From IMG/VR virus record IMGVR_UViG_3300025645_000104, positions 1 through 52,214 of that record: a stretch of DNA of 52,214 bases. One strand, 5' to 3'. This document shows, piece after piece, positions 5,153 to 52,214 of this stretch (position 1 is its first letter; each line of letters starts with the position of its first letter). The position numbers and the translations under genes were made by a program. This stretch comes from a virus. Taxonomy: Duplodnaviria; Caudoviricetes. The notes beneath the pieces are model-generated. The model made no database searches. It was not told where the DNA came from and saw only the letters and a list, made by a program, of their open reading frames with translations.

Positions 5153-6142
5153 TTAGTCAATACCATAGAAAGCAGAAACTAATGCTTCGCCACGTAGTAC
5201 TTTTCCACCATAAACATGGAGTCCTCGTACTATGTCGCCAAAGCTATCAGGATCACGCAATACTTCAGTACTTGTAATCGTCTGAGCAGTAGCTGTAGAT
5301 GACATATGACCAGCAATACATTTACCTGCAGCATTAGTTGTTGCAGCAATGTTGTTTGACTTGTACATATCGAATCCACGTAGTTTTCCACTTGAGACTA
5401 GACCATTTCTAATAGAACCTTGACCTGCGTTATAATCAACAGACAAAAGTTTTGACGATGAACTCGCAAGAACTTCGTAGAAATCAGGTGATGCTAAGAA
5501 CCATCGACCTTCTTCTGGAATGTTCTGTTCGTCAAGCAAACGAGCCATATGTGACAATACGTCAATAGGATCGTGTTCACTTGAAGCAAAACCGATGTCA
5601 AGATTACCAGTTCCATCAAATGTGCCTGCAGCTAAATCAGTAGCGTTGTCAGAACCAAGTATATGGTTAGGACTTGCTGCAGATACACCTGCGAACATAG
5701 TAGCGATGATACCTTCATCATAAGCATCACGAAGAGCATATGCTGCAGATGAACTAGCAACTTCTTTAAAGTTCACGTGAGACATTGAAGTTTCAATATC
5801 ATCAACGATGAATTTAAATGCGTTAGCTGTATCAACTACAAGAGTCAACTCTTGATCAGTTAATTTAGTAGCTGTAACATCTGCACCACGTTCGTATTGG
5901 TACACAGTGATTTCAGGTTCTTTTATAATCTTTACGGAATCTCCGAAAGCGGCAATCTCACCAGCATAATCTGTGTTGGTGATCGCTTCTACAACCGAAG
6001 CCTTTCTAAAGAAGTTGAGAACCTTTTTAGAGTAGACTGCGGGAAGGAAAAACGAATTAGTTTGACCGCTGACGGAGTTCGCAAAGTTAGCGTTAGTATC
6101 AGTACTTGGTTCAAAGAACTGATCTGATTGGTTATAAGCCAT
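5153..6142 (-). CDS. Major capsid protein
   Basis: 329 aa with FLPAVYSKKVLNFFRK...ITNTDYAGEI...GDSVKI and FGDIVRGLHVYG motifs; after the scaffold, followed by a terminator. Confidence 0.9.
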   Translation of the reverse strand: MAYNQSDQFFEPSTDTNANFANSVSGQTNSFFLPAVYSKKVLNFFRKASVVEAITNTDYAGEIAAFGDSVKIIKEPEITVYQYERGADVTATKLTDQELTLVVDTANAFKFIVDDIETSMSHVNFKEVASSSAAYALRDAYDEGIIATMFAGVSAASPNHILGSDNATDLAAGTFDGTGNLDIGFASSEHDPIDVLSHMARLLDEQNIPEEGRWFLASPDFYEVLASSSSKLLSVDYNAGQGSIRNGLVSSGKLRGFDMYKSNNIAATTNAAGKCIAGHMSSTATAQTITSTEVLRDPDSFGDIVRGLHVYGGKVLRGEALVSAFYGID

Positions 6143-6183
6143 TTTACTTCTCCATTATTTTATCAAATTAAAAGTTATTGTTT

Positions 6184-7059
6184 TTATTTAACTACTCTGC
6201 CTTCGTGAATTGCTCGACCAATTTCTTCTTCAAAACGATCAAACTCATCAATAGACATATTAGCTATTTCCCTTTCAGTCCAAATTTTTTCCTGCTTTGG
6301 ATCAACTGAAGTTGTTTTAGTTGAAACCATATCAGCAGCAGATTTTTTGGACTTAGCTGAAGATGGTTTTTTAGCTTTAGAAGAAGTGTCAATGTTTAAA
6401 TCTTTTTTAAATAAATCTAAAGCTCGGCTTGCTAGATCAGCATCATCTGCATTATTATATATCCAATCTTGAATTGACTCAGGTTGTTCTTTAGCCCAAC
6501 TATGAAAATCTTCACTGTTGCGAATATCATCAAAGTCAGGATGTTTAGATAAGAGTCTACTCTCAGCTTCACGTTGTAGTATTTCTATTTCACGTTTTTC
6601 AAGTGATGAAATTTTATCTTCTAAAGATTTTATACTTTCACCGCTTTTCATTTGTGATACAGTTTCTACAACATCGTACACATCTGGATATTGTTTTTTA
6701 AACTCTTCAAGTTCTTCAGCAGTTTTTGGAGCTTTATAGTTTTGTTTGCTAGTATTAGCAGCTTCTTCTATAAGTGTCTTTTCTCTACTTTTAAACTCGT
6801 TAAGTTTTTTATCATAATGAGATTTTAAATCATCGTATCTTTTCTTATAGTCAGGTTTTTTATAAGGTTGATTTTTAGATGCTGCTTCTTTAACAGGAGT
6901 TTCTTCGCTGTTAGTTTCTGTAGCTTCTACTTTATCTTCCTTTGGTTTATTAAAAAACGCACTATCAGCAGATACAAATTCTTTTTCATCACTAGTATGC
7001 CAGTCTTTATTTTTATTATAAGGATTAGCTTTTGGTTCTTCTTTCGCTTGTGTTGCCAT
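6184..7059 (-). CDS. Capsid scaffolding protein
   Basis: Charged coiled coil, DYKKRYDDLK, C-terminal ..AIHEGRV; directly upstream of MCP. Confidence 0.8.
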   Translation of the reverse strand: MATQAKEEPKANPYNKNKDWHTSDEKEFVSADSAFFNKPKEDKVEATETNSEETPVKEAASKNQPYKKPDYKKRYDDLKSHYDKKLNEFKSREKTLIEEAANTSKQNYKAPKTAEELEEFKKQYPDVYDVVETVSQMKSGESIKSLEDKISSLEKREIEILQREAESRLLSKHPDFDDIRNSEDFHSWAKEQPESIQDWIYNNADDADLASRALDLFKKDLNIDTSSKAKKPSSAKSKKSAADMVSTKTTSVDPKQEKIWTEREIANMSIDEFDRFEEEIGRAIHEGRVVK

Positions 7060-10427: not shown

Positions 10428-12110
10428 TTAATACCCAAAGGTTGTATCAGAAGGTGCGTATATTTCTTGTTTTAACTCTCGTATCCGATCATATGGGCTT
10501 GCTATTCTAGGTCTGCTCATAATCATATAACGTAATGCGTCATATGCGTGATCCGAAGCGTGAGTATCTACATCCTCTGGATTTGTTTTAGACAACGGTA
10601 TACTTTGTAATTCTCTTATCAAGTTAGGACACGTATTGAATATTTGTAACTTAGGTCTACCGTTCTCTTTAATTTTTAAAAATTCATGTATTTGAATTTT
10701 ACCTTGTACTCTGTTCTTATCTGCTCTTCTTAACTTGTGTCCTTCTTTCAAAAGAGCTTCACCGACAGTCGGTCCTGTAGATCCTGTCTTAGCCCATGCA
10801 GCACCGTCTAAGACACCTGAAACTGCAAAAGGATCTTCAAGTTCCATATTAGTTATTATACTGCCTAATTCCTCACCTGTCAAGCCTTTTCTGTATAATT
10901 CTCGATAAATTATTAAAGTTCCGTCATTAATATCTACAATTCCCCATAAACAACAGCTTTCAGCGGCATATCCGTAGTCAATTCCTTTAACTCTTTCCCA
11001 CCCAATAGGTAGCTCAAACGGAGGAATTACATGGACTTGCGTATCAAATTCTACAAAAGCAGCTCCTTCTGCAACATCCCAATTACCTTCTAACAACTGT
11101 CTACGTTGAATAGGTGGTAAAGACTTAAGCATTTGCTCATAGATACCATCTTCCGCAAGATAAGGATTATCAGCTAGTTTTGCGGGAATAAACTTTCTAG
11201 ATAATCCATCGTTACCTGTAAAACCTGTGTTATGTTCTGAAGGTTCTATGTATCTTTTCTTTACCCAATGCGAACCTACACCGCCCGGATTTGCTGTGCA
11301 GCGTAGGTATGTTTGTATTTCAGGATCAGTTGTACGAAGTCGGGAAGCTAAATAGTTCCAACTAAACTCTGTAGGTAGGTGGGTTATTTCGTCAAAGCCT
11401 ATCCAAGAATAAGCTTGCCCTTGATAACGATATACATCTGCGTCACGTTCAAGGAAGCCAAACTCTACTTTTGCACCGCTTGGAAAGTTCCATAGCTTTT
11501 CTACTTCTCGGAACTTAGCTCCTTGAAAAGCTAACGGATAAAGTTCACGAGATTTATCTATCATCTCGCGTAACTCTGGCATAGAGCGTCTAAGTATTAG
11601 TGCGCGGTGCGCTTTCTTATGCGCATAGCGTAACGGATCAATCAACATTGCGTATGATTTACCACCACCCGCAGCACCGCCATACAGAACATCTTTCTCA
11701 CCTGCAGCAAGAAAGTCTGTTTGTGGTCCTTCGTTAGGATGAAATAAGACATTTTGTTCTGGCAGTATGTCTTGTACTGCTTTAGGAAGCTCGTCTAGCT
11801 CTGAAGGCGAAACAACGCGATCCGTCTTATCGGAAAGCTTATTTATTGTATTGGTTGTGGCTTTGTAAGACTTTCTAGCATTGTTTAGCTTTTCTTCAAG
11901 CTTCTTTATGTTTTTCTTTTTACGTGCTATTTTACGATGAACAGCATACTTGGCTTTTTGTGAAGAGGATACGTTGTAACTGCTACCTGATCCTAATGGT
12001 CTGCCTGCTTTTAAACGTGGTGTACCGTCTTTCTTACGGACAAAGTTACCTTCGCTATCTTGCAAGTAACGATCTGGGTTCAGTTCCCAGTCTTTCGCTT
12101 CTTTTTCCAT
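10428..12110 (-). CDS. terL: Terminase large subunit
   Basis: Walker A GGAAGGGKS, Walker B IGFDE, TANPGG, nuclease GIDYG and DHAYDALRY. Confidence 0.95.
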   Translation of the reverse strand: MEKEAKDWELNPDRYLQDSEGNFVRKKDGTPRLKAGRPLGSGSSYNVSSSQKAKYAVHRKIARKKKNIKKLEEKLNNARKSYKATTNTINKLSDKTDRVVSPSELDELPKAVQDILPEQNVLFHPNEGPQTDFLAAGEKDVLYGGAAGGGKSYAMLIDPLRYAHKKAHRALILRRSMPELREMIDKSRELYPLAFQGAKFREVEKLWNFPSGAKVEFGFLERDADVYRYQGQAYSWIGFDEITHLPTEFSWNYLASRLRTTDPEIQTYLRCTANPGGVGSHWVKKRYIEPSEHNTGFTGNDGLSRKFIPAKLADNPYLAEDGIYEQMLKSLPPIQRRQLLEGNWDVAEGAAFVEFDTQVHVIPPFELPIGWERVKGIDYGYAAESCCLWGIVDINDGTLIIYRELYRKGLTGEELGSIITNMELEDPFAVSGVLDGAAWAKTGSTGPTVGEALLKEGHKLRRADKNRVQGKIQIHEFLKIKENGRPKLQIFNTCPNLIRELQSIPLSKTNPEDVDTHASDHAYDALRYMIMSRPRIASPYDRIRELKQEIYAPSDTTFGY

Positions 12111-12348
12111 ACTTCTTATCTACATGTTTTTTAAGACCTGCGCGAGTAATTGATCTTTCTGTCTTATACTCTAACCAATCTACTGCTTCTTGCAAAGATA
12201 TTTCTTCTTTAACAATCATCTCTTCTACTAAACCAAGTGCTTCTATCTGTTCAGGTATGGGTTTTAGGTATCTAGTTTCTAGATCTAACTCATAACCAAA
12301 AGGAATAGTTGAACTGGCTCGTTTAATATAACCGTTTTCTGTGTTCAT
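12055..12348 (-). CDS. Small putative DNA-binding (HTH-like) protein
   Basis: IPFGY motif then SLQEAVDWL...RSITRAGLKK, like recombinase-type DNA-binding domains. Confidence 0.55.
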   Translation of the reverse strand: MNTENGYIKRASSTIPFGYELDLETRYLKPIPEQIEALGLVEEMIVKEEISLQEAVDWLEYKTERSITRAGLKKHVDKKYGKRSERLGTEPRSLLAR

Positions 12349-12357
12349 AGTACTGTG

Positions 12358-12468
12358 TTACTTTAGTTTTAGTTTTGCTTTAAGTGTTGCGTATAGTTCT
12401 GGTTTGGCTCTTTTAATAATAATAGCTGCCATAACAACGACTACACCTAGACCGATGATAAAATCCAT
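12358..12468 (-). CDS. 36-aa membrane peptide
   Basis: MDFIIGLGVVVVMAAIIIKRAKPELYATLKAKLKLK with GGAGGAG RBS. Confidence 0.7.
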   Translation of the reverse strand: MDFIIGLGVVVVMAAIIIKRAKPELYATLKAKLKLK

Positions 12469-12470
12469 AG

Positions 12471-12902
12471 TTACTCCTCCTCTATAGTTACGTCTGTGTA
12501 TTCTGTATCTTCAATTACTACTGAATGTTTTTCAGGCAATATAAAAATACCCCCTTGCACATTGTGATCTACCTGTACACGGTCAGTCTTAGCAACACCT
12601 ACACGATCAAGTATAGTCTGTGCAGCGTGTAGCTTTTGACTAGCTTGTGGAATAGGTTTGTTACTGTCGATCATCTCTACTAACTTAAAGGCAGCTTTAG
12701 GTGCGGAACGCGCAAGCACATCTGAGGCTAAGTCGACTACTTCTTCTTTTAATGATTTAAGTACTTGATAGTGATTGCCTGAATAGCCTGCAAGTTCTGC
12801 TGCTTTTTTAAAGTCACCTTCGGTAGTGACAAGATTATCTAGGAAAGACTGCTGTTTTTCTGTGAGATTACGATTAGTTTTCTTTTCTGGCATTAAATTC
12901 AT
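12471..12902 (-). CDS. terS: Terminase small subunit
   Basis: LTEKQQSF...KAAELAGYS HTH and AAQTILDRVG; start moved to ATG 12902 (or 12893) because the track's TTG is the -35 box. Confidence 0.8.
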   Translation of the reverse strand: MNLMPEKKTNRNLTEKQQSFLDNLVTTEGDFKKAAELAGYSGNHYQVLKSLKEEVVDLASDVLARSAPKAAFKLVEMIDSNKPIPQASQKLHAAQTILDRVGVAKTDRVQVDHNVQGGIFILPEKHSVVIEDTEYTDVTIEEE

Positions 12903-12912
12903 AATACCTACC

Positions 12913-12941
12913 ATTATAAGGGTACTTTTAAAGTTTGTCAA
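12913..12941 (-). promoter_or_regulatory. Sigma70 promoter for the packaging/structural arm
   Basis: TTGACA-17 bp-TATAAT, perfect consensus. Confidence 0.9.
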
Positions 12942-12966
12942 GTCTTATTTATTTTTTCTTTAGGGC

Positions 12967-12995
12967 TTGACAAATGCTAAAATAAACTGTATAAT
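12967..12995 (+). promoter_or_regulatory. Divergent sigma70 promoter facing the non-coding region
   Basis: TTGACA-17 bp-TATAAT, perfect consensus. Confidence 0.85.
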
Positions 12996-13263
12996 GAATG
13001 TAATGGTCGGGGGGGTTCAACACCTATAGAACCTAGCTAATTTATTTCCCCTTATAGCGCAGATAACGCTTATAAAATATATCTATATATTGATCATTTA
13101 TTATATATGATTGTTAATATGTTCGCGGCACTGGTTAACACTTGAAAAGTTTGTGAAATGTATAACTTTTATATATATATACTACCTACCCCCTATGCCA
13201 CATACGTACCCCTACTACAGTAACACTCGCTTCGCTCGTATTCCTTATACAAAAACTCCGCAG

Positions 13264-13353
13264 ATGAGAATGATTCTCATTTACAAACGTAAACGCTTCT
13301 CATTCAGGAACTTAACTGATTCTCATTCAATAATGTAAATGATTCTTATTTAC
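13264..13353. promoter_or_regulatory. Cluster of Fur-box-like sites
   Basis: Palindrome ATGAGAAT-G-ATTCTCAT (13264-13280) plus GCTTCTCATT, TGATTCTCATT and GTAAATGATTCTTATTTAC. Confidence 0.7.
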
Positions 13354-13393
13354 AAACTGGTTCATATTTTGCCCACTTGTCAAGCGATATAAG

Positions 13394-13450
13394 TTATACA
13401 CAGGTTGTTAACACTTTGTAAAGTTATCCACACTTTTAAAGTTATCCACA
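13394..13450 (+). promoter_or_regulatory. Three DnaA boxes
   Basis: TTATACACA 13394, TTATCCACA 13424, TTATCCACA 13442; same orientation, each preceded by AAG. Confidence 0.8.
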
Positions 13451-13495
13451 TTTTACCAACAGGTAAACAATAACTCTCGATTCAATGATAAAGTA

Positions 13496-13511
13496 CTGGT
13501 TATATATACAG
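13496..13511. promoter_or_regulatory. LexA (SOS) box, gamma/beta-proteobacterial type
   Basis: ta-CTG-GTTATATATA-CAG-ca matches CTG-N10-CAG with an AT-alternating spacer. Confidence 0.75.
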
Positions 13512-13601
13512 CACCACTTTAAAAGCTCTCTAAGCTGATTCTAGCCATTATTTGCCAAAGCTATACCTTACTATTAAAACTTTGTGATCTCTTGATTTCA
13601 C

Positions 13602-13675
13602 CTGAAACCCTTATAAACAAAGGGCTGTAACTTTCCTTCAGGGGAAAGATGCTCTGAAACCCTTATAAATAAAGG
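13602..13675 (+). repeat. 22-bp direct repeat CTGAAACCCTTATAAA(C/T)AAAGG, two copies
   Basis: Copies at 13602-13623 and 13654-13675 flank the first CTTTCC-N6-GGAAAG palindrome. Confidence 0.85.
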
Positions 13676-13709
13676 CATTAAATTATTTTTATTTATTTTA
13701 CGAAATCGC

Positions 13710-13739
13710 TTGCAATCATTTTTTTTTTCGTAGTATAAT
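13710..13739 (+). promoter_or_regulatory. Early sigma70 promoter with AT-rich upstream element
   Basis: TTGCAA-18 bp-TATAAT preceded by A/T tracts. Confidence 0.7.
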
Positions 13740-13930
13740 ATGACCATGTTCGTTAGATGGCGAACTCAAAACCGCAAGGACTGCAACCAAAGCATCAATA
13801 TTATCAACTCTAGGATAATACCAAATATTTAAATTAGTCGTTTCAATATTGTTATTTGATAAGGTGTTGATTGATTGCTTAATATAATAACTTTCCCTCA
13901 GAGGAAAGATTAAAACATGAGGCAGTAAAA

Positions 13931-14590
13931 ATGGAAGCACAAAAACAAGCAACACCTAAAAAGATCGCTAAAAAAATAACTACAATGAGAAAGCAAGAAA
14001 ATACAATGAGTCAAATTGTTAATGGTATTCAAGAAGCTTTATTATTTGAATCCAATTCAATGCATCAATCAGGCACTGAAAATGGTTTATTTGATTTAAT
14101 CAAACAAGCATTTAATAAATTGACTACTGAGACTGACATTGAAAATGCACGTATTTCAATCTATGATAGGCATTATGAATTTCCAAGCGAGGGCAAGTTT
14201 ATGCTAGGTAGAAAGGGCAACGGCACAACGTCAAAAGAAGTAAATCGAAAGCCAGCTCCCAAGACTCTATCGAATGTATTTTCTCTATGTAATCAAGCGG
14301 TAAGAGATTGTGTTACTGGTAAAGATGGACAAGAAACACAATTCGGCTATAAGCAATGGCTACCTGCTAAAGGATTACATGCTTTTGAGTCTATCAATGA
14401 CGAAGAAAATTCAGAACTTGGATTGAAAGTAATTCTTCGAGATAAAAAGAACGACCCCGATAGACTGTTAAGAAATCAACTAATTGCACAACGTAAAAAG
14501 GCATTAGCTGACGAAGTAGCAGAAAATAAAGAAGCAATGAAACTTGATGACAAAGGCTATGCAAAATATATAGCTAAAAACTTTAGTTAA
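13931..14590 (+). CDS. First early gene, hypothetical protein (219 aa)
   Basis: ORF with GAGG RBS downstream of the early promoter. Confidence 0.8.
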   Translation: MEAQKQATPKKIAKKITTMRKQENTMSQIVNGIQEALLFESNSMHQSGTENGLFDLIKQAFNKLTTETDIENARISIYDRHYEFPSEGKFMLGRKGNGTTSKEVNRKPAPKTLSNVFSLCNQAVRDCVTGKDGQETQFGYKQWLPAKGLHAFESINDEENSELGLKVILRDKKNDPDRLLRNQLIAQRKKALADEVAENKEAMKLDDKGYAKYIAKNFS

Positions 14591-14662
14591 AACCAATCGC
14601 AATCTTTCAGCGCCTTATCAAATAATAATATGAACTTTCCCTCAGAGGAAAGATTAAAAAAC

Positions 14663-14729
14663 TTTCTAAGACTTGGCAAGATTTCCCCCAATTTTGCTGA
14701 GTCTTGGAAAACTTTTTAATTTTTTTTTA
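14663..14729 (+). terminator. 20-bp hairpin with U tracts (terminator and/or RNase III site)
   Basis: 14663-14682 pairs with 14691-14710 using four G-U pairs; loop TTCCCCCA; T tracts follow. Confidence 0.7.
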
Positions 14730-14905
14730 ATTTATTATTTAAGTTGAGAGTTGAGAAGAGAGAAGATGAGAGAAAACAACTACCTCAAATCACTTGACTT
14801 GAGAGACTATATATGAGACTATAATAGTACAAGCACCACTAATAACAGTAACACTAACCAACTTTCCCTCAGAGGAAAGATAATAAAAGAGAGAGAGAAG
14901 ATACC

Positions 14906-15016
14906 ATGACTAGAACTAGACAACGAAAAATGCAGAGAGAATTACTATCATATAAATATTTATGTTTGTTTGTGTTAGGTTTCTTAATAGGAATCTTTCT
15001 AGGTACTGCGCTATGA
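14906..15016 (+). CDS. 36-aa membrane peptide
   Basis: MTRTRQRKMQRELLSYKYLCLFVLGFLIGIFLGTAL; ATGA overlap with the next gene. Confidence 0.65.
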   Translation: MTRTRQRKMQRELLSYKYLCLFVLGFLIGIFLGTAL

Positions 15017-28541: not shown

Positions 28542-30473
28542 ATGACACAAACAAACAACGCAGAGTTACCCACAAACTATCAACAATTTATACACCTTAG
28601 TAGATATGCAAGGTGGAACGAAGAACATCAACGTAGAGAAACATGGAGCGAAACTGTTTCTAGATATTTTGATTTCTTTGAAAATCATTTAATGAAGAAG
28701 CATAACTTAGACATCATTACATGGAACGGAACTAGAAAATATTTAGAAGAAGCTGTACTTAACTTAGATGTTATGCCAAGTATGCGAGCATTGATGTCAG
28801 CAGGTAAAGCATTAGAGCAAGATAACGTTGCAGGTTTTAACTGTAGCTATGTAGCTGTCGATAACGTCAGAGCCTTTGATGAAACGCTATACATACTTAT
28901 GTGTGGCACAGGTGTTGGCTTTAGTGTAGAGCGTCAGTATGTTAATCAACTTCCTGATCTACCTGAAGAACTATTCAATACAGATACAGTTATTAAGGTA
29001 GCTGATTCTAAGATTGGGTGGGCAAAATCCTACAAAGAACTACTCTCGTTACTATACGCAGGGCAGATTCCCACATGGGATGTGTCTAACATCAGACCTT
29101 ATGGTGCTAGACTTAAAACATTTGGTGGTCGTGCTAGTGGTCCTGCTCCACTTGAAGAGTTATTTAATTTTACTATCAACATATTCCGTGATGCTATTGC
29201 AAAAGGACAGCGTAAGCTTGTGTCCATAGACTGCCATGATTTGATGTGTAAGGTCGCAGAAGTCGTAGTCGTAGGGGGAGTAAGGCGAAGTGCTTTAATC
29301 TCTCTCAGCAACCTCTCAGACAATCGTATGCGCAATGCCAAGTCAGGTGCTTGGTGGGAAGACAATCAGCAGAGAGCGTTATCTAATAACTCAGTAGCAT
29401 ACACAGATGCTGCAGAAACTGGTGCGTTTATGCGTGAGTGGTTGTCTTTGTATGAGTCTAAAAGTGGTGAACGTGGTATGTTTAATCGTCAAGCTGCAGA
29501 AAAACAGGCAGCTAAGAACGGTAGACGAGAAGATTATGAACACTTTGGTTGTAATCCTTGTAGTGAGATTATTCTACGTAACAAACAGTTCTGTAATCTT
29601 ACTGAGGTTGTGGTTAGACCTGAAGATACAACAGCTACTCTTAAAGATAAAGTAGAACTTGCTACCATACTTGGTACGTTTCAAGCTACCTTAACAAACT
29701 TTAGATACTTGACAAGTAAATGGAAACAAAACACAGAAGAAGAATCGTTACTTGGAGTATCACTTACAGGTATCATGGACAATAACGATATGGTAACTGG
29801 AAATAATATAGATTTAGAATATCTTAAAAACTATTCAGTATCTGTTAATAAGTTATGGGCTAAGAAGCTAGGTATTCCCCACTCCGCAGCAATAACCTGT
29901 GTGAAACCTAGTGGAACAGTTAGTCAACTGGTCGATAGTGCTTCAGGTATTCACACTAGACATAGCCCATACTACCTACGTACTGTCAGAGCAGATAAGA
30001 AAGATCCGTTAGCTAAACTAATGGTAGACGCAGGTGTATATCACGAAGATGATCTTACTAAGCCAGAGCATACCTATGTGTTTTACTTCCCCATGAAGAG
30101 TCCTAAAGGCTCTCTCACAAGGAAGGACTTCACAGCTATACAACACTTAGACCTTTGGAAAGAGTATCAGGATAACTGGTGTGAGCATAAACCATCTGTT
30201 ACTATCTCAGTTAAAGAGAACGAGTGGTTAGACGTAGGTGCTTGGGTATATAAAAACTTTGATGATGTATCAGGTATCTCGTTCTTACCATACTCAGATC
30301 ACTCATACAAGCAAGCTCCTTATCAAGAGATTACTTATAACGAGTATCGTAAGTGGTTAAAGAAAACTACAGACGTAGTAGATTGGTCTAAGATAACAGA
30401 GTACGAAACAGAAGATAACACTGAGAACACTAAAGAGCTTGCGTGTAGCGCAGGTACTTGTGAGATTATTTAA
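28542..30473 (+). CDS. nrdJ: Class II (adenosylcobalamin-dependent) ribonucleotide reductase
   Basis: FNC, LMCGTGVGFS, NPCSEI, FCNL, TCVKPSGT, WCEHKPS, C-terminal CSAGTC; no beta-subunit gene nearby. Confidence 0.9.
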   Translation: MTQTNNAELPTNYQQFIHLSRYARWNEEHQRRETWSETVSRYFDFFENHLMKKHNLDIITWNGTRKYLEEAVLNLDVMPSMRALMSAGKALEQDNVAGFNCSYVAVDNVRAFDETLYILMCGTGVGFSVERQYVNQLPDLPEELFNTDTVIKVADSKIGWAKSYKELLSLLYAGQIPTWDVSNIRPYGARLKTFGGRASGPAPLEELFNFTINIFRDAIAKGQRKLVSIDCHDLMCKVAEVVVVGGVRRSALISLSNLSDNRMRNAKSGAWWEDNQQRALSNNSVAYTDAAETGAFMREWLSLYESKSGERGMFNRQAAEKQAAKNGRREDYEHFGCNPCSEIILRNKQFCNLTEVVVRPEDTTATLKDKVELATILGTFQATLTNFRYLTSKWKQNTEEESLLGVSLTGIMDNNDMVTGNNIDLEYLKNYSVSVNKLWAKKLGIPHSAAITCVKPSGTVSQLVDSASGIHTRHSPYYLRTVRADKKDPLAKLMVDAGVYHEDDLTKPEHTYVFYFPMKSPKGSLTRKDFTAIQHLDLWKEYQDNWCEHKPSVTISVKENEWLDVGAWVYKNFDDVSGISFLPYSDHSYKQAPYQEITYNEYRKWLKKTTDVVDWSKITEYETEDNTENTKELACSAGTCEII

Positions 30474-30702: not shown

Positions 30703-31809
30703 TTAACTTCCTTGTTTAATATTAATTACAGAGGAGCTGCCTCCGTTAGTAGTAACTCTGTTTACTTTACCTTCTTGTTCAATAGTTATACTGTATGAAC
30801 CATCTTTAGATACGTTCATCTCTAGTGTATCTTCTATAGATCTTAAGAACTTTAAGTTTGTGTCAGTAACAAAGGTACTAATCTGGGTGTCACCATCATA
30901 GCCTACTGCAGTACCTTTTACTCCATCTGCAGACAGAGCTTTGTTTGCTTTACCTAGCTCGTCAACTTCTTGTATGACATCAAGTAGATCTTCAAGGAAG
31001 TTACCTGCTAGGTAGTCTATGTCTAGCTCTGTATATTCTAAATCATCTTCAGCTAAATCATCCTGTTCTAGCTCGTCAAACTCTAAGAAGTCTACGTCTA
31101 ATAGATTATCTACAGCAGCAACTGATTCGTCTGTTTGAATCTCTTTAGTCTCTGGAGGATTTACAATGAGCATATTGTCAATCATATCTAGTGTTAGGTC
31201 TAGTATAACTGAAGGAGTTGGTGCAGTTTCAAAGTTGTATACTGTAGTAGCTTCATAGGCTTTGGTAAGGACTACCTGTCCTAGTGCTGTGTCTACAGTT
31301 ATCTCACCACTAGAGTTACCAAACTCATCAGGGAGTAGAATCACTAAAGTTTCTCCAGTTTCTTTAACAGTCAGTGTGAAATCTGTGCCTCTAATTCCAA
31401 TGGTAGCCGCATTGGTACGGATAGTAATATTATCTTTAGGTATACGTCTTTTAGTTTTAGAACTTATGAACCTGCCAGTACCTTTCACAAACGACAAAGC
31501 CATTGTAGATTTAGCTGGATCAGGATCAAACACAAACTTATCTATAGTTACATTGCTGTGTTCTGTTAGACGTATCGTTGTATCATCTCTAAACGTAACA
31601 CCCATTCTGCCTTGCGCAGTTTCTAGTTTGTCCATAGAGTTAAGCGAGAAATCAATCTCGCTCTCATAAGGTTTATCTCTTACTACTCTGGTGTTTCCGT
31701 TTAACTGTGTAATGCTTCCAATATCAACATCCAACGCTTGTGCCTTGATCGTCTTGGTTAATGCAAACTGTACCGTTAGAACCAGTAGAAGTAACTTTAA
31801 GCCAGTCAT
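30703..31809 (-). CDS. Secreted FecR-domain protein
   Basis: Signal peptide MTGLKLLLLVLTVQFA...AQA; DKLETAQGR...FRDDTTIRL...ATIGIRGTDF FecR signature; acidic linker. Confidence 0.8.
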   Translation of the reverse strand: MTGLKLLLLVLTVQFALTKTIKAQALDVDIGSITQLNGNTRVVRDKPYESEIDFSLNSMDKLETAQGRMGVTFRDDTTIRLTEHSNVTIDKFVFDPDPAKSTMALSFVKGTGRFISSKTKRRIPKDNITIRTNAATIGIRGTDFTLTVKETGETLVILLPDEFGNSSGEITVDTALGQVVLTKAYEATTVYNFETAPTPSVILDLTLDMIDNMLIVNPPETKEIQTDESVAAVDNLLDVDFLEFDELEQDDLAEDDLEYTELDIDYLAGNFLEDLLDVIQEVDELGKANKALSADGVKGTAVGYDGDTQISTFVTDTNLKFLRSIEDTLEMNVSKDGSYSITIEQEGKVNRVTTNGGSSSVINIKQGS

Positions 31810-32431
31810 TATCTTGTGTGCTTTGCTGATCCACATCGAAGGCTCTTGAGCTTCCTGTGTGTGTAAGGTGAAAATACCCCTGCGCATAACCGTCTCCATC
31901 ATAGTTTACTGTGTTACTGTCACCATCTATATTCATATAGTTAGTTGCTGAGTCTACATCAATGTCAGCGTTAATAGTATTACTAGAACCCTGTACAGTC
32001 CAATCTATATCTGCACCACTTGCTAAAGCTGCAGTAGCTAAATCAAGTGTGAAGGTGTTGGTACTGCCTGTCACTTGGACATTAACGTTAGAACCATCTG
32101 CGCCAAACGCATTGGTTGGATCCATCTTAGATGTAAACGTGTTAGTGTCACCATCAAAGTTAAAGTAACCAGTGTATGTATCTGCGTACATATCCCCTAA
32201 GAACTTGTTAGTATCTCCTATTTGATTTATATCTAATGTCATTGAGGTTCCATCAAGATCTAATGCAGTCATTGAACCTGCTACTGCAGTAAGACCACCT
32301 ATAATGTTACCACTACCTAATTGCTCAAGATCTATGTTAGCTGTAGCTCCTACTTGATCCACAAAGATCTCGTTGTCTGAAGCTAAAGTGCTAAACGATA
32401 CTAACACCAACAAGCTAATTAATTTATTCAT
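31724..32431 (-). CDS. Curlin-like secreted beta-repeat protein
   Basis: Sec signal peptide; repeated (Q/x)xGxxN units; adjacent to csgG. Confidence 0.65.
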   Translation of the reverse strand: MNKLISLLVLVSFSTLASDNEIFVDQVGATANIDLEQLGSGNIIGGLTAVAGSMTALDLDGTSMTLDINQIGDTNKFLGDMYADTYTGYFNFDGDTNTFTSKMDPTNAFGADGSNVNVQVTGSTNTFTLDLATAALASGADIDWTVQGSSNTINADIDVDSATNYMNIDGDSNTVNYDGDGYAQGYFHLTHTGSSRAFDVDQQSTQDNDWLKVTSTGSNGTVCINQDDQGTSVGC

Positions 32432-33275
32432 ATTTCCAATACCCCCTAGTAATTCCTACTTTTATTATTTCTAATACACCTGCCTCTATTGCTTTCTGCA
32501 GAGCTATAGCACTACTTTCGTTTGCTGCAATACCTCCTTCTGCTTCAATCAATTTTGTTCCTTCAGATATAAATCTAAATATATCCTGTGAAAGACTTGC
32601 CGATAACACACTCTTAGTTACCAATGTTTCAATCAATACTTCGCCTGTCGATACAGACACAAGACGTAATGAAATCGTAATCAAGTCTTCTCTATATTGT
32701 TTTGCAGATCCTAAACCTAACGCTCTTGCTCCTGTTCCTCCAGAATAAACATTAGCATCATAGCTTAGTACACCTCCTTGTATTATCAATCCTGCCAGTA
32801 ATAACGGTTTTACCGTGCTATCTTCGTCAAATGAATCTCTTGTAGATCTTATGAGCTGACGTTCTTTTGTCAAGCTGTCAAGTCCTACACGTTCTGCAAC
32901 TTGGAAAAACTTCCCATCTGCTGCGTGTTTTAAAGCCCTGATAAGAAATGCTTCAGGAGCTTGAGTAATTGCTGTACTAAATAAAGCAAACTGTCCGTTG
33001 CTTTTGCGCTGTCCTGTTTGATCTCTAAAGCTATTAGGATAGATAGCTATAACAGGCTTACGTTTTGCAGCAGGTATATTCTTTAGTTCTTCTGATTGTA
33101 AATCCATTATAGAAGAACTTTTAATTACTACATTAGGTATACCACTACCTTCTAATATATTACGTGAGGCACAACTAGAAAGTAAAGTCACCGATAGGCA
33201 CAGTAATATTAGTTGTACCACCTGTTTCGTCTGTAACTGTAAGCGTGATCGTATCTGCTTCAACAACGTATTCAA
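32424..33275 (-). CDS. csgG: CsgG-family outer-membrane secretion lipoprotein
   Basis: Lipobox LSSC; FRDQTGQRK, FSTAITQ, ERVGLDSLTKERQLIR, GGVLSYD. Confidence 0.9.
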   Translation of the reverse strand: MNTLLKQIRSRLQLQTKQVVQLILLCLSVTLLSSCASRNILEGSGIPNVVIKSSSIMDLQSEELKNIPAAKRKPVIAIYPNSFRDQTGQRKSNGQFALFSTAITQAPEAFLIRALKHAADGKFFQVAERVGLDSLTKERQLIRSTRDSFDEDSTVKPLLLAGLIIQGGVLSYDANVYSGGTGARALGLGSAKQYREDLITISLRLVSVSTGEVLIETLVTKSVLSASLSQDIFRFISEGTKLIEAEGGIAANESSAIALQKAIEAGVLEIIKVGITRGYWKYE

Positions 33276-33642
33276 TCGTATTTCCCTCTAAAGTTAATTT
33301 GCCTTCTTTCTGTGGTGTCTCTCCGAACAAAGACTCCACCATCTGTCGTGATAGCTGTGCATAGATACGACTTTCTAAGTTTCTTATAAATCTAGCAAGC
33401 GTTGTGTTGTCTGCTTCTCTAGCTAACTGATCTGTATAAGCTTTAATCTCTTCTTTAATTGTAGCTTTTCGAGTAGCTTCTTGGTTCTCAATAGTAAGGT
33501 AGTGGCTCGATGTATTTATTCCTGAGAAGCTAGGACTTTTAAAACTGTAGATTAATTGATCGGCTTTAATATGAGACACAAAAAAAATTATTAGTAACGT
33601 CCAACTAATAACTAAAAGTTCTTTATCTTTTTTTAGTTTCAT
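33175..33642 (-). CDS. csgF: CsgF-family curli assembly protein
   Basis: Signal peptide then LIYSFKSPSFSG (compare CsgF FQFRNPNFGG); directly upstream of csgG. Confidence 0.8.
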   Translation of the reverse strand: MKLKKDKELLVISWTLLIIFFVSHIKADQLIYSFKSPSFSGINTSSHYLTIENQEATRKATIKEEIKAYTDQLAREADNTTLARFIRNLESRIYAQLSRQMVESLFGETPQKEGKLTLEGNTIEYVVEADTITLTVTDETGGTTNITVPIGDFTF

Positions 33643-48785: not shown

Positions 48786-49469
48786 TTATGCTACCTGTAT
48801 ATCCCAACAATTTAAATTAGCTGCTACTGTTCTACGTTCTCCGTCACCTTTAAAAGGATAAACCATATGTTGTAACCAACTTGGAAACAAATAAAGCTTA
48901 CCTACTTGAGGTTGTAGTACAAAGCTCTGTGGAGGCTTTAGAGTCTCTATATCTGTAACGTGCTGTTGACCATAACTAAAGGCTAAATAGCCGTCACAGT
49001 CTCCACTAGCGTTATACAAGTTATAGTTTGGAGTACCTGCTGTAGGTTGATCTAGTATTTGTTGTGGTACTTTAGTCCACGTAGTACACGATATACCCAT
49101 TAATGTTTTAGTTCCGTGACTGTGAATAGGATTATAATCTCTTTCGTAACTGTGTACTGACCACAGCTCATCCATTTCTACACGCTTGTTAGTTTTGTAA
49201 GTTGCACCAGTAGCCTGAGAAAAGCGGTTAATATATTCAGCACCCAAACTACATAGTAAGTTAGTAAATTCAGAAACTTTTTCATCGTTATGATCCATTA
49301 ATAATTGCTGTCCGTGTTGTATCTGACCAACTAATGTGGAAGCAAGCGACTTACGTTTCTTTTCTTTTAAGTAACTATCTAAGTAAGTGTTAAGATTAGT
49401 TACTACATCTTCTGATACATCGTGTTCCATTACGAAAACACTAGGCATCGTATGCACTTGTGTTGTCAT
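48786..49469 (-). CDS. 2OG-Fe(II) oxygenase
   Basis: YNPIHSH...LFPSWLQHMVYPF...ERRTVAAN. Confidence 0.85.
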   Translation of the reverse strand: MTTQVHTMPSVFVMEHDVSEDVVTNLNTYLDSYLKEKKRKSLASTLVGQIQHGQQLLMDHNDEKVSEFTNLLCSLGAEYINRFSQATGATYKTNKRVEMDELWSVHSYERDYNPIHSHGTKTLMGISCTTWTKVPQQILDQPTAGTPNYNLYNASGDCDGYLAFSYGQQHVTDIETLKPPQSFVLQPQVGKLYLFPSWLQHMVYPFKGDGERRTVAANLNCWDIQVA

Positions 49470-49793: not shown

Positions 49794-52214
49794 CTATTCC
49801 TCGTTACATTTACATTTAGGTTGTGTTTTTAATTCTTCGACTTTTGCCGAAAGCTCTTGGACTGCTTTGACCATCATTGGCATTAAAGCACCATAAGCAA
49901 TATTTTGTTGTCCATCATCATCTTCTGACCAAAATTGAAACCCATCTGCTATTTCAGAATATTTATCTATAACTGCTTTTGCTTCTTGAGCTACAAAGCC
50001 GTGATGAGTATTAGAGTTTCTATATGATTCAGTAGAGCCTTCTACATAGTTTTTTGCCCAACTAGGTATATCACCTTCGTCTTTCCATTGGTATGTAATA
50101 GGTCTTAAATCAGTAATAAAATCTAAACCAATATTAGAATCTTTAATATTCTTTTTAAATCTTTCGTCTGAAGTACCTGACCAATCTCCAGTAGCTCCTA
50201 AAGCAATATGAGAGTTGTTTGATCCATCACCTACAGTAAATCTAGTCAGACCACCACTTGTTAAAGTAGCGTTACCTGTACCGATAACTATTTGATTAGA
50301 ACCAGTAGCACTATTAGCTTTTGAACGATAACCAATTAAAGTATTGTAGCTTGCAGTAGTATTATTCTCACCAGCATCTTTACCTAAAAAAGTATTGCCC
50401 TGTCCAGTAGTATTAGAATCACCAGCATTTGAACCTACTGCTGTATTAAGAAGACCTGTAGTGTTTGCGGCTAAAGAAGAAATACCGATTGATGTATTGT
50501 TATGTCCTGTTGTGTTTGCTGTTAATGCACTATGACCAACTGCTGTATTAGCGTTTGCTGTGGTGTTTGCTATTAAAGCAGCAGCACCAACAGCTGTATT
50601 GTTAGCACCAGTAGTAGTAGCACTTAAAGAATAATATCCTAAACCGGTGTTACCAGCACCAGTAGTAATGGCATCACCAGCGTATGCGCCAACTAGAGTA
50701 ACACCTGCCACATTAGCATTTGTGCCAGCGTGATACCCAACATAAGTTGCATCATAGCTGGTTGAAGTTAATCCAGCACCAGCACCAACTGCTGTATTTG
50801 AATTACCTGTTGTATTAGCTCCTAAAGCACCATCACCAAGAGCAACATTATTTGTTCCTGTCGTATTCGCATCAAGTGAAGTAGCACCTACCGCAACATT
50901 GTTTGTGCCTGTAGTGCTTGATTGCATAGCACTTTTACCAACAGCTACGTTTGTATCGCCAGTTGTATTATCTGCTAAAGCTCCATAACCAACTGCGGTA
51001 TTATTAGATGCTGTGGTGTTAGTTTGTAAACAAGCCTGACCAACCGCAACATTTGACGCACCAGTAGTATTTGCTGCAAGTGCGTTTTCACCAAAAGCTG
51101 TATTATAAGAAGCTGTTGTATTTGCAGCCATAGCACCTTCACCAACCGCTGTGTTTTGAGTTCCTGTGGTGTTTGCTGTTAAAGCATCCATACCAACAGC
51201 AGTGTTGTTAGAAGCGGTGGTATTTGCAAGTAAAGCATCTTTACCAATAGCTGTATTACCCGCACCTGTACTATTAGTTTGTAAAGCCGACCTTCCAACT
51301 GCAACATTATTTGCTGCGGTTGTATTTCCAGATAAAGATAAAGCACCTAATCCAGTATTACTAGAACCTGTCGTATTTGCATCAAGGGAATTGTTACCCA
51401 TTGCTGTATTATTAGAACCTGTTGTAAGTTTAGCTAACGCTTGTGCGCCTACACCTGTATTATTATCACCACTTGTAAGATCATCAAATGCTTCATTACC
51501 AAAACCTGTATTGTTAGAAGCTGCATCTAGTGTACCTGTACCTGCATCGTTGCTGATAAGCATACTACCTACAAAGTTTGTTTTAGGACCAGTTATGCCT
51601 ACTGTATTAATTGTAGAAGAAGCTGTAATTGCTCCATCAACTTGTAGTGTAGAAGCCATATCTACCGCACCGTCAATGTCTACGACATCTAGGTTGGCTG
51701 TGCCTGCAACATCTATTGCACCACTAATATCTAACGTAGCTGCATCAAGCTCACCGCTTATAGTAAGGTTTCGTACACCTGTATAATCTTTGTTAGAGTC
51801 CAATATAACAGCTTTAGAAGCTACTGCCGTACCTATTGCTGTACTACCTATGTCTAGAGCATTAAGCTCTCCTACTACGGCTGTGATGCCGTCTAAGGCA
51901 TTAAGCTCTTCAGGTGTTGAAGTAACCTGAGTATTACTTGCTGCAGCTAATACAGGAACTGTACCTGATACGTTAGGTAAAGTAATTGTTCTATCTGCTG
52001 TAGCATCTACAATAGTAAGTGTAGTTTCGTGTGCATCAGCAGTAGCACCTTCAAATACAACAGCGTTGTTTGCGCTCATAGTAACTGAGTCTACAGTACT
52101 AAGAGTACCACTAACTGAAATGTTAGTTGCAGAAAGAGTTCCTGTGCTTGGGTTGTATTTTAAATCACCATCTGATTCTAAACCTAAGTTACCACCGTCT
52201 AAGTCTCCACCTGC
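49794..52214 (-). CDS. Tail fibre, C-terminal part with 14-aa beta-roll repeats and an S74 intramolecular chaperone (open at the right end)
   Basis: Frame stays open to 52214; many NTAVG..AL..NTTG repeats; SDERFKKNI...GFVAQE chaperone motif. Confidence 0.9.
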   Translation of the reverse strand, partial: AGGDLDGGNLGLESDGDLKYNPSTGTLSATNISVSGTLSTVDSVTMSANNAVVFEGATADAHETTLTIVDATADRTITLPNVSGTVPVLAAASNTQVTSTPEELNALDGITAVVGELNALDIGSTAIGTAVASKAVILDSNKDYTGVRNLTISGELDAATLDISGAIDVAGTANLDVVDIDGAVDMASTLQVDGAITASSTINTVGITGPKTNFVGSMLISNDAGTGTLDAASNNTGFGNEAFDDLTSGDNNTGVGAQALAKLTTGSNNTAMGNNSLDANTTGSSNTGLGALSLSGNTTAANNVAVGRSALQTNSTGAGNTAIGKDALLANTTASNNTAVGMDALTANTTGTQNTAVGEGAMAANTTASYNTAFGENALAANTTGASNVAVGQACLQTNTTASNNTAVGYGALADNTTGDTNVAVGKSAMQSSTTGTNNVAVGATSLDANTTGTNNVALGDGALGANTTGNSNTAVGAGAGLTSTSYDATYVGYHAGTNANVAGVTLVGAYAGDAITTGAGNTGLGYYSLSATTTGANNTAVGAAALIANTTANANTAVGHSALTANTTGHNNTSIGISSLAANTTGLLNTAVGSNAGDSNTTGQGNTFLGKDAGENNTTASYNTLIGYRSKANSATGSNQIVIGTGNATLTSGGLTRFTVGDGSNNSHIALGATGDWSGTSDERFKKNIKDSNIGLDFITDLRPITYQWKDEGDIPSWAKNYVEGSTESYRNSNTHHGFVAQEAKAVIDKYSEIADGFQFWSEDDDGQQNIAYGALMPMMVKAVQELSAKVEELKTQPKCKCNEE
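52087..52214. repeat. Imperfect copy of 1-128
   Basis: Manual alignment, 9 mismatches. Confidence 0.95.

Follow-up and report, generated by a model that had tools for sequence, protein, structure and literature searches.

A clustered array of Fur-, DnaA- and LexA-type sites in an uncultured podovirus resembles the core of the phage T5 injection stop signal

Analysis of a 52,214-base viral record from an uncultured source, which looks complete and is called the window throughout, revealed a non-coding array of putative host regulator sites at positions 13264-13513. The array comprises four Fur-box-like units, three consensus DnaA boxes and one LexA-box match, and it is very probably a module of host-factor sites related to the region of phage T5 in which the injection stop signal lies. 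A first-pass annotation of this DNA had noticed the sites and had suggested that they recruit host proteins, either for titrating them, for aiding DNA entry or for sensing the state of the host. Its observation is confirmed by our analysis, while its interpretation is partly supported.

Judged by its sequence, the carrier phage is an HMO-2011-type podovirus of ~52 kb. The record is classed as linear and without end repeats, and a tRNA search of it returned none. The portal and terminase genes show ~70% DNA identity to those of the Pelagibacter phages HTVC115P, 104P and 103P, with more distant DNA matches in Roseobacter and Puniceispirillum HMO-2011-type podoviruses, and the nearest cultured relatives infect SAR11, an alphaproteobacterium. 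In bacterial genomes, the terminase matched only 4 metagenome bins, which belong to unrelated taxa and reach 67-70% identity; a host assignment from these uninformative matches was dropped. Minus-strand genes run leftward from 12941 and encode the small terminase (with a weak Pfam match), the large terminase, the portal, the major head protein and tail proteins. The plus-strand set starts at 13931 and extends rightward, the first early gene occupying 13931-14590; the leading small ORFs of this set have no family match in PHROGs or Pfam. Further genes on the plus strand encode a T7-type primase-helicase, already recognized in the first-pass annotation, as well as a family A DNA polymerase, a Cas4-like exonuclease, endonuclease I and a B12-type ribonucleotide reductase. 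The phage also carries a gene for a 2OG-Fe(II) oxygenase, which depends on iron. The absence of an integrase or recognisable repressor, likewise proposed earlier, holds for the 50 ORFs scanned, which include part of the small ORFs. The array sits in a 990-base gap, a control region of ~1 kb, between the divergent packaging/structural and early genes. The cumulative GC-skew minimum falls in this gap, and the gene-strand switch is found at the same place.

Two perfect sigma-70 consensus promoters (12/12 each) are arranged back to back on both strands at 12913-12995, within an inverted repeat (I1). One of them (12941-12913, minus strand) faces the small terminase gene and the other (12967-12995, plus strand) faces the array, while a weaker promoter-like site (13710-13739, plus strand, 10/12) precedes the first early gene. 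It had been claimed that none of the regulator sites overlaps a consensus promoter and that the nearest promoters are those at 12967 and 13710. Our consensus promoter scan agrees, finding no overlap with the array and adding the minus-strand promoter at 12941. The array lies ~260-510 nt downstream of the perfect 12967 promoter and ~200 nt upstream of the early-gene promoter, so that the order along the gap is perfect promoter, array, hairpins and early promoter. A non-coding block at 12945-13225 (plus strand) is kept in the five nearest relatives, and the variable part of the gap that bears the array begins after this block. An AT-rich tract at 13060-13185 lies ~200 nt from the DnaA boxes, with a C-rich block in between. 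A coding reading, based on a 75-aa ORF with a TTG start at 13111-13338, was dropped; conservation in the relatives ends at ~13225. A structured RNA was dropped as well: an Rfam search of 12000-15000 (E up to 1) gave two implausible eukaryotic matches only, and the RNAalifold covariation term for block 12996-13232 across the five relatives was 1.61, a positive and hence unfavourable value. Contigs from RNA libraries cover 12839-13116 at a depth of ~3, and short high-depth contigs match 13264-13304 alone and then diverge. The latter probably represent Fur sites of other organisms, and neither set was taken as evidence about transcription.

All sites named in the first-pass annotation could be located. 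Fur-box-like unit 1, ATGAGAATGATTCTCAT (13264-13280, plus strand), is a perfect 8-1-8 inverted repeat, and its inner 15-mer (13265-13279, plus strand) is the best Fur-type site in the window. It is followed on the same strand by three units of repeat family D1, namely the degenerate 23-nt unit 2, which includes ATTCAGGAA (13294-13316), unit 3, TGATTCTCATT (13317-13339), and unit 4, TGATTCTTATT (13340-13362), all four units being phased at 23 nt. Two of the four units are strong and two are half-site-like. The best match to the Fur 19-mer in the window is found here (15/19, with 12 of the 14 specified 7-1-7 positions matched). All three occurrences of GATTCTYAT in the window lie inside the array. 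The three DnaA boxes, at 13394, 13424 and 13442, are all on the plus strand, in line with the co-orientation reported earlier. Two of them, each together with a weak partner 2 nt away, make up two copies of a 23-nt direct repeat (family D7). Copy 1 (13391-13413, plus strand) consists of TTATACACA at 13394-13402 and the weak site TTGTTAACA at 13405-13413, and copy 2 (13439-13461, plus strand) of TTATCCACA at 13442-13450 and the weak site TTACCAACA at 13453-13461. The remaining box, a single perfect TTATCCACA at 13424-13432 (plus strand), was found by motif scan, and both perfect TTATCCACA boxes of the window fall inside the array. The SOS box is a LexA-box-like palindrome at 13494-13513, whose CTG-N10-CAG core, CTGGTTATATATACAG, occupies 13496-13511 and has the AT-rich centre that an SOS box requires. 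It matches 17/20 positions of the LexA consensus, and the next best 20-mer anywhere in the window matches 14. It should be noted that scoring relied on short consensus motifs and not on position weight matrices. The CTG-N10-CAG form would fit proteobacterial use of LexA, and may not apply to a host of the alphaproteobacterial kind.

The site cluster is real and non-random, and it is the clustering that is unusual, not the number of sites. Over the whole window, TTATNCACA occurs four times versus 3.5 expected, so that genome-wide counts are not raised, whereas none of 500 dinucleotide shuffles of the window placed 3 DnaA boxes within 260 bp or brought all three site kinds together. The largest site total in these shuffles was 3, compared with 6 observed, and a LexA-box-like palindrome is expected 0.01 times per shuffled window. 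Shuffling the AT-rich gap alone 1000 times produced at least 3 DnaA boxes in no case, at least 2 Fur-like sites once and a LexA-like site once, and no shuffle (0/1000) combined two site kinds. In the comparison with shuffled sequence, a check suggested by the first-pass annotation, the sites thus stand out by their clustering, and whole-window site counts are ordinary.

The Fur-like motif is identical to a published operator. The 15-mer of unit 1 equals the Fur box printed for EF3082-3085, an operon of Enterococcus faecalis for iron transport whose derepression in a fur mutant is 12-18 fold (PMC6056675). Strings that closely resemble it are given as Fur boxes of Acinetobacter baumannii in another report (PMC3055841). 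Of 8 papers printing any of three 13-letter strings from the array, four carry titles on iron, Fur or TonB-dependent receptors, and two more are versions of one study on siderophore-rich gut microbiomes. These literature matches support a Fur reading of the motif, and Fur is the putative binder in the host of this phage.

A BLAST search of the gap against 50,697 phage records gave 18 matches, all of them to T5-like Salmonella or Escherichia phages. Every match aligns window positions 13260-13360 with the annotated T5 injection stop signal, at 73-77% identity over ~97 nt, the lowest E-value being 2e-11. Aligned locally with T5, the gap scores 72, compared with 19.2 +/- 2.5 (maximum 31) for shuffles, and the DnaA/LexA part with its flank alone scores 32 against T5 repeat B, compared with 17.4 +/- 2.7. 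The first-pass annotation had pointed to DnaA boxes in the T5 first-step-transfer region; the link is stronger than it supposed, as the array aligns with the stop signal itself and the order of elements is repeated. Repeat Region 3 of T5, located in the left terminal repeat, consists of direct repeats C, DnaA-box repeats B within IRC'/IRD' and a palindrome D. Read in the same orientation as the window, repeats C of the AATGATTCTCATTTAAAAAG type at 23 nt are followed by repeats B with DnaA pairs and then by palindrome D, CTGTATATTTATACAG. The three parts thus occur in identical order and relative orientation in both phages. Beyond the core motif, both have the 23-nt phasing in common as well as a degenerate unit whose ATTCAGGAA keeps the same register, and in the alignment Fur-like unit 1 falls on T5 repeat C copy 3 / palindrome G. 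In both, DnaA box pairs lie in two 23-nt direct repeats beside the repeat C array, and a CTG-N10-CAG palindrome adjoins the DnaA boxes. Palindrome D of T5 matches the LexA 20-mer at 19/20 positions (at 9409), compared with 17/20 in the array, and the same 16-mer recurs in T5 at 6213 beside another DnaA cluster. Fur 7-1-7 sites are found in T5 at 9658 and 9699, and a 7-1-7 site of T5 matches 13 of the 14 positions specified by an E. coli-type consensus.

The two systems differ in their genomic context. The carrier analysed here is a ~52-kb podovirus with a T7-type replisome and T5 a 122-kb siphovirus, and their terminases and replisomes are unrelated. A tblastn search with 17 T5 first-step-transfer proteins, including A1 and A2, found no homologue in the phage (best E 0.22), and the family of nine D repeats, which in T5 adjoins the array together with a major nick site, is absent from 12900-14000 by repeat search. 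DnaA pairs are spaced by 2 nt here and by 3 nt in T5, and the DnaA repeats by 48 nt here and by 61 in T5. Here the module precedes the early genes and, with respect to the direction in which they are transcribed, is inverted compared with T5, where it is found just past two terminators, downstream of rightward pre-early genes. The T5 signal also lies at the inner end of a long terminal repeat, at the border of first-step-transfer DNA; the assembled record analysed here is classed as without end repeats. Taken together, the array and the core of T5 Repeat Region 3 are probably related by descent. Horizontal exchange would account for the shared spacer details better than convergence. A host-derived origin of the array was rejected: 5,426 E. 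coli genomes gave no match to it (E up to 1).

The T5 region is conserved in 25 T5-like phages and contains eight DnaA boxes in pairs 3 bp apart, and membrane-bound DnaA has been proposed to halt T5 injection, as set out in a detailed comparative analysis (Davison, bioRxiv 10.1101/866236). The words Fur, LexA and SOS have 0 whole-word occurrences in that analysis, so that two of the three candidate factors suggested here are not named in it. Experimental work on T5-type repeats and DnaA boxes is described as lacking in a 2023 paper on BF23 (PMC10644984). A literature search, the scope of which excluded most subscription journals and supplements, found no papers joining phage T5, first step transfer, LexA and Fur.

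Similar arrays recur in other phages. The 23-nt phased pattern common to the window and T5 was found in 52 viral stretches, which fall into 21 families by flank similarity, one of them made up of T5 and T5-like contigs and another located on a 108-kb contig. Eight of the 21 families have one or more proteins in common with the window phage at E <= 1e-5 (for example the primase-helicase at 40-42%), and eleven have none in common with it within the locus. In the family representatives, arrays contain 2-5 exact GATTCTYAT cores in boxes of the TGAGAAT-G-ATTCTCA or TGATAAT-G-ATTCTCA type. In some families tandem LexA boxes are added (L120, L122, L124, L127 and L134), and in others paired DnaA boxes (L094 and, ~520 nt away and with 2-nt spacing, L132). 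Co-occurrence was counted on the first member of each family only and is thus a lower bound, the LexA pairs of L120, L122, L124, L127 and L134 having been missed by the count. The orientation of the arrays relative to flanking genes varies between families, which fits a protein site acting at the DNA level rather than an RNA element. At a looser BLAST threshold, 226 isolate records match, including T5-like phages and phi92-like coliphages of ~145-150 kb; in one of the latter, an unannotated stretch of 120 bases is taken up by five Fur-like boxes. A match in ICP1 was set aside as a single site and not an array. The full three-part combination was found only in T5-like phages and in this window. 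The arrays of five larger records lie in the interior, at arbitrary coordinates. Many short contigs end near arrays, which may reflect assembly breaks.

Among close relatives, the contents of this part of the gap change. A search with the large terminase retrieved 598 related stretches, the best 80 of which were kept for gap comparison. By blastn of the gap, the array is present in none of these 80, and it is therefore dispensable for the phage group. Only the five nearest of the 80 (terminase identity 90-93%) share the first 240-280 bases of the gap. In four of these five (L004-L007), the conserved block is followed by two perfect tandem LexA-type boxes 2 nt apart, located 1175 and 1157 nt upstream of the terminase start, the position that Fur-like units 1-2 take in the window; in the fifth (L003), a different set of short repeats follows. 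No DnaA box is present in the gap of any of the five, and by reading, the equivalent gap of SAR11-infecting cultured relatives contains none of these sites. Conservation in relatives, a check suggested by the first-pass annotation, is thus limited: the array itself is missing in the 80 terminase relatives, while a LexA pair occupies the same spot in 4/5 of the nearest and Fur-like arrays are found in more distant relatives. Since contents differ there between relatives, the right half of the gap appears to be a swap-prone slot that tends toward host-regulator-like sites, and from these comparisons the slot may keep some host-regulator site while the kind of site changes. Within its own genotype the array is stable. 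It is found without differences in contigs of three runs from other studies, covering 12988-13529 (X8), 12877-13502 (X10) and 13173-13366 (X11). A variant contig of run X11 departs from the window at 13178 into a G-rich run, as L003 does. A single X11 contig that skips 13172-13376 was discarded as unreliable, with 25 letters on its shorter side and an inverted repeat beside it.

We hypothesize, at a probability of roughly 0.4, that the non-coding stretch 13264-13513 acts in cis as a barrier or gate, being a module of the T5 stop-signal kind on which host proteins dock. On newly entered DNA, host Fur, DnaA and LexA would load onto the module, where Fur could spread along the phased boxes and DnaA could take a strong box together with its weak neighbour, and the three proteins together would form a nucleoprotein barrier. 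Such a barrier would pause or gate RNA polymerase on its way from the end-proximal promoter into the remaining genome, and any transcription-coupled internalisation of DNA would be gated along with it, given the presumed direction of DNA entry and a presumably proteobacterial host that uses these motifs. What the unrelated phages have in common suggests that the binders are conserved proteins of the host and not phage proteins specific to one lineage, and the order of promoter, array, hairpins and early promoter favours an action on RNA polymerase or on coupled entry. According to Schaefer and Messer, DnaA on a box inside a transcription unit, at asnC, can reportedly block RNA polymerase. The place of the T5 module past two terminators would suit a fail-safe barrier. 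Several points count against a barrier, namely the placement upstream of the early genes and inverted with respect to T5, a LexA motif that may not apply to an alphaproteobacterial host, the lack of an A1 or A2 homologue in the tblastn search, the 0/80 result in terminase relatives and the SAR11 phage gap without sites. A barrier would also be strongest in healthy, iron-replete cells, which offers no obvious benefit.

The sites might instead be conditional operators that tie early transcription to iron (Fur), damage (LexA) and growth or replication (DnaA-ATP), with sensors that differ among relatives. The swap of site kind at one position, a Fur-like array here versus a LexA pair in L004-L007, is consistent with this, as is the location of the sites between two promoters facing early genes, and the tandem LexA boxes would imply tight, SOS-relieved binding. 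We nevertheless consider a sensor of host state unlikely. No site lies over a recognisable -35 or -10 element, the T5 module is found downstream of the pre-early genes and not at a promoter, and all three proteins bind in healthy, replete cells, which would be an odd sign of response for a virulent phage. Titration by multiplying arrays that soak up Fur (and LexA and DnaA), with iron uptake and SOS derepressed and host initiation disturbed, seems improbable to us. In favour of such a decoy, multicopy Fur boxes are known to titrate Fur, an effect on which the FURTA assay is built. Arrays of 2-6 Fur-like boxes occur in 21 contig families, most of which have no nearby DnaA or LexA site (as counted on the first member of each family, with co-occurrence a lower bound), and the phage-encoded 2OG-Fe(II) oxygenase depends on iron. 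However, each genome has only one LexA-like site, and the ribonucleotide reductase is of the B12 type and needs no iron. The decoy is further weakened by T5, which has this module as well but destroys the DNA of its host within minutes, while transfer is paused (bioRxiv 10.64898/2026.04.02.716235), so that host genes could not respond.

A replication origin made up of DnaA boxes, iteron-like repeats and the nearby AT-rich stretch, and activated by transcription from the 12967 promoter, would have little likelihood in our view. Pairs of strong and weak DnaA boxes at 2 nt within a cluster of consensus boxes, the AT-rich tract at 13060-13185, the cumulative GC-skew minimum and a consensus promoter reading into the region all speak for it. 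The skew minimum coincides with the gene-strand switch, though, the nearest relatives lack a DnaA box in the gap (0/5), the phage has its own primase-helicase and DNA polymerase, and T5 origins map near the genome centre according to Davison (bioRxiv 10.1101/866236, section 3.3.3). A neutral passenger, that is, a piece recently gained by recombination with a T5-like or other phage and without a role, could be absent from 80/80 of the best terminase relatives and lie within the hypervariable part of the gap, as observed. It is nonetheless very unlikely given that each of the three kinds of element is intact, with two DnaA boxes and the 8-1-8 palindrome perfect, that the array is identical in three other runs and that similar arrays are kept in independent lineages. 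Phased direct repeats adjoining the small terminase gene, and early genes without family matches that could encode an unfamiliar binder, would suit sites for a phage protein which merely resemble host motifs, for example a small terminase packaging site or the target of an early regulator. This is highly improbable, since the 15-mer and its phasing are also found where terminases and early genes are unrelated, namely in T5-like and phi92-like phages and in 11 contig families that share no protein with this phage, and since the 15-mer equals a documented Fur box (PMC6056675).

The relevance of the array lies mainly in the comparison with T5 and in the recurrence of Fur-type arrays in phage control regions. 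The working parts of the T5 injection stop signal have stayed undefined over the decades since it became known, and the array represents a variant of this known yet unexplained element that provides a new comparative handle on the T5 puzzle. Finding the three-part core in an unrelated podovirus without A1/A2 narrows the candidates to shared host factors, and the T5 stop-signal question becomes directly testable through Fur, LexA and DnaA. Fur-type arrays also appear to be common, and undescribed, in non-coding control regions of environmental phages. A more general proposal, which we regard as doubtful, is that the T5 stop signal is one case of a portable Fur/DnaA/LexA module exchanged among unrelated virulent phages and placed in first-entering or control DNA. 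If this were true, aquatic podoviruses as well as coliphages would widely rely on a barrier of host proteins to gate genome delivery, to make it stepwise or to control early transcription, and the T5 stop would be made by host proteins and not by DNA structure alone.

Beyond T5, the array can be compared with three kinds of known systems. It resembles the Fur operators of bacterial iron-uptake genes in its 7-1-7 inverted repeats and overlapping hexamers; in contrast to these, it does not lie over a promoter, is found in the non-coding control region of a virulent phage and has DnaA and LexA sites alongside. DnaA clusters of the oriC or plasmid type share with it consensus 9-mers in one orientation and weak neighbours 2 nt away, and in oriC, a distance of 2 bp between a strong box and a low-affinity DnaA site favours cooperative filling. 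Here, however, the AT-rich tract is ~200 nt off and may not represent an adjacent unwinding element, the boxes are absent from the gap of close relatives and the phage brings its own replisome. Tectivirus GIL01 and CTXphi are phages that use host LexA directly; they are temperate or in a carrier state, and their LexA boxes lie over promoters. The array differs from these systems in that there is no promoter overlap and no lysogeny gene was found here, and is similar to them in that LexA-type boxes are located in a phage control region, with close relatives carrying such boxes in tandem.

The gap of the window, the non-coding control region of about 990 nt that carries the array, contains several further elements. 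Two sigma-70 consensus promoters, each a perfect 12/12 match, are placed back to back at 12913-12995 and are both enclosed by an imperfect inverted repeat of 36 nt. One of them is oriented toward the terminase and structural genes, the other toward the array. A non-coding block of 280 nt (12945-13225) is kept in the five nearest relatives and includes an AT-rich TATATATA run followed by a C-rich element (ACCCCCTATGCC...CCCCTACTAC). An RNA fold of this block received no covariation support. Fur-like arrays of other contig families are likewise flanked by G- or C-runs, and the block could have a role in packaging or be related to a genome end.

Repeated hairpins separate the array from the first early gene, at 13602-13675 and 13888-13910, built from CTGAAACCCTTATAAA(C/T)AAAGG and CTTTCC-loop-GGAAAG, each present in two copies. 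The third of these hairpins is followed by a T-rich run and may serve as the end point for transcripts of the promoter at 12967. Positions 12931, 13147 and 13577 of the gap share the short motif AAAGTTTGT(C/G)AA. The gap of L003, one of the five nearest relatives, contains many related TTTACAA/TTTGCAA repeats at the place occupied by the array in the window. Both the motif and the L003 repeats may be sites of another factor. Short high-depth contigs from the RNA-library run X15 match 13264-13304, covering only the first Fur-like units before diverging, and most likely represent Fur-regulated leaders of other organisms.

Elsewhere in the phage, homologues of the curli-secretion proteins CsgG and CsgF as well as a FecR-domain protein are encoded on the minus strand (30703-33642), and the array-bearing contig L132 has homologues at 53-56% identity. 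An iron-dependent 2OG-Fe(II) oxygenase (48786-49469) and an iron-independent B12-type ribonucleotide reductase (28542-30473) may bear on any iron-related reading. Minus-strand ORFs are truncated by both record ends (3-1910 and 49794-52214) and could form one tail-fibre-like gene, provided that the record derives from a circular assembly whose break point fell within a gene.

Fur-like and companion sites were also observed in other phages. T5 (NC_005859) carries a perfect 7-1-7 Fur-type box at 233-247, within dmp and 233 nt from the left end. A second DnaA-box cluster of T5, located in Repeat Region 2 (6121-6228), is accompanied by a LexA-type 16-mer identical to the copy in the injection-stop region. 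In the phi92-like myovirus Escherichia phage PD114, five Fur-like boxes lie within 120 unannotated bases (about 1430-1545 of locus L137), and a AAAAACTTTAAATAA...TTGAA(C/G)TTTTCATTTT repeat comes after them in three or four copies. With respect to the back-to-back promoters, Pelagibacter phage HTVC115P carries a comparable promoter and, after it, AACACCTATA (about 1785-1850 of locus L135).
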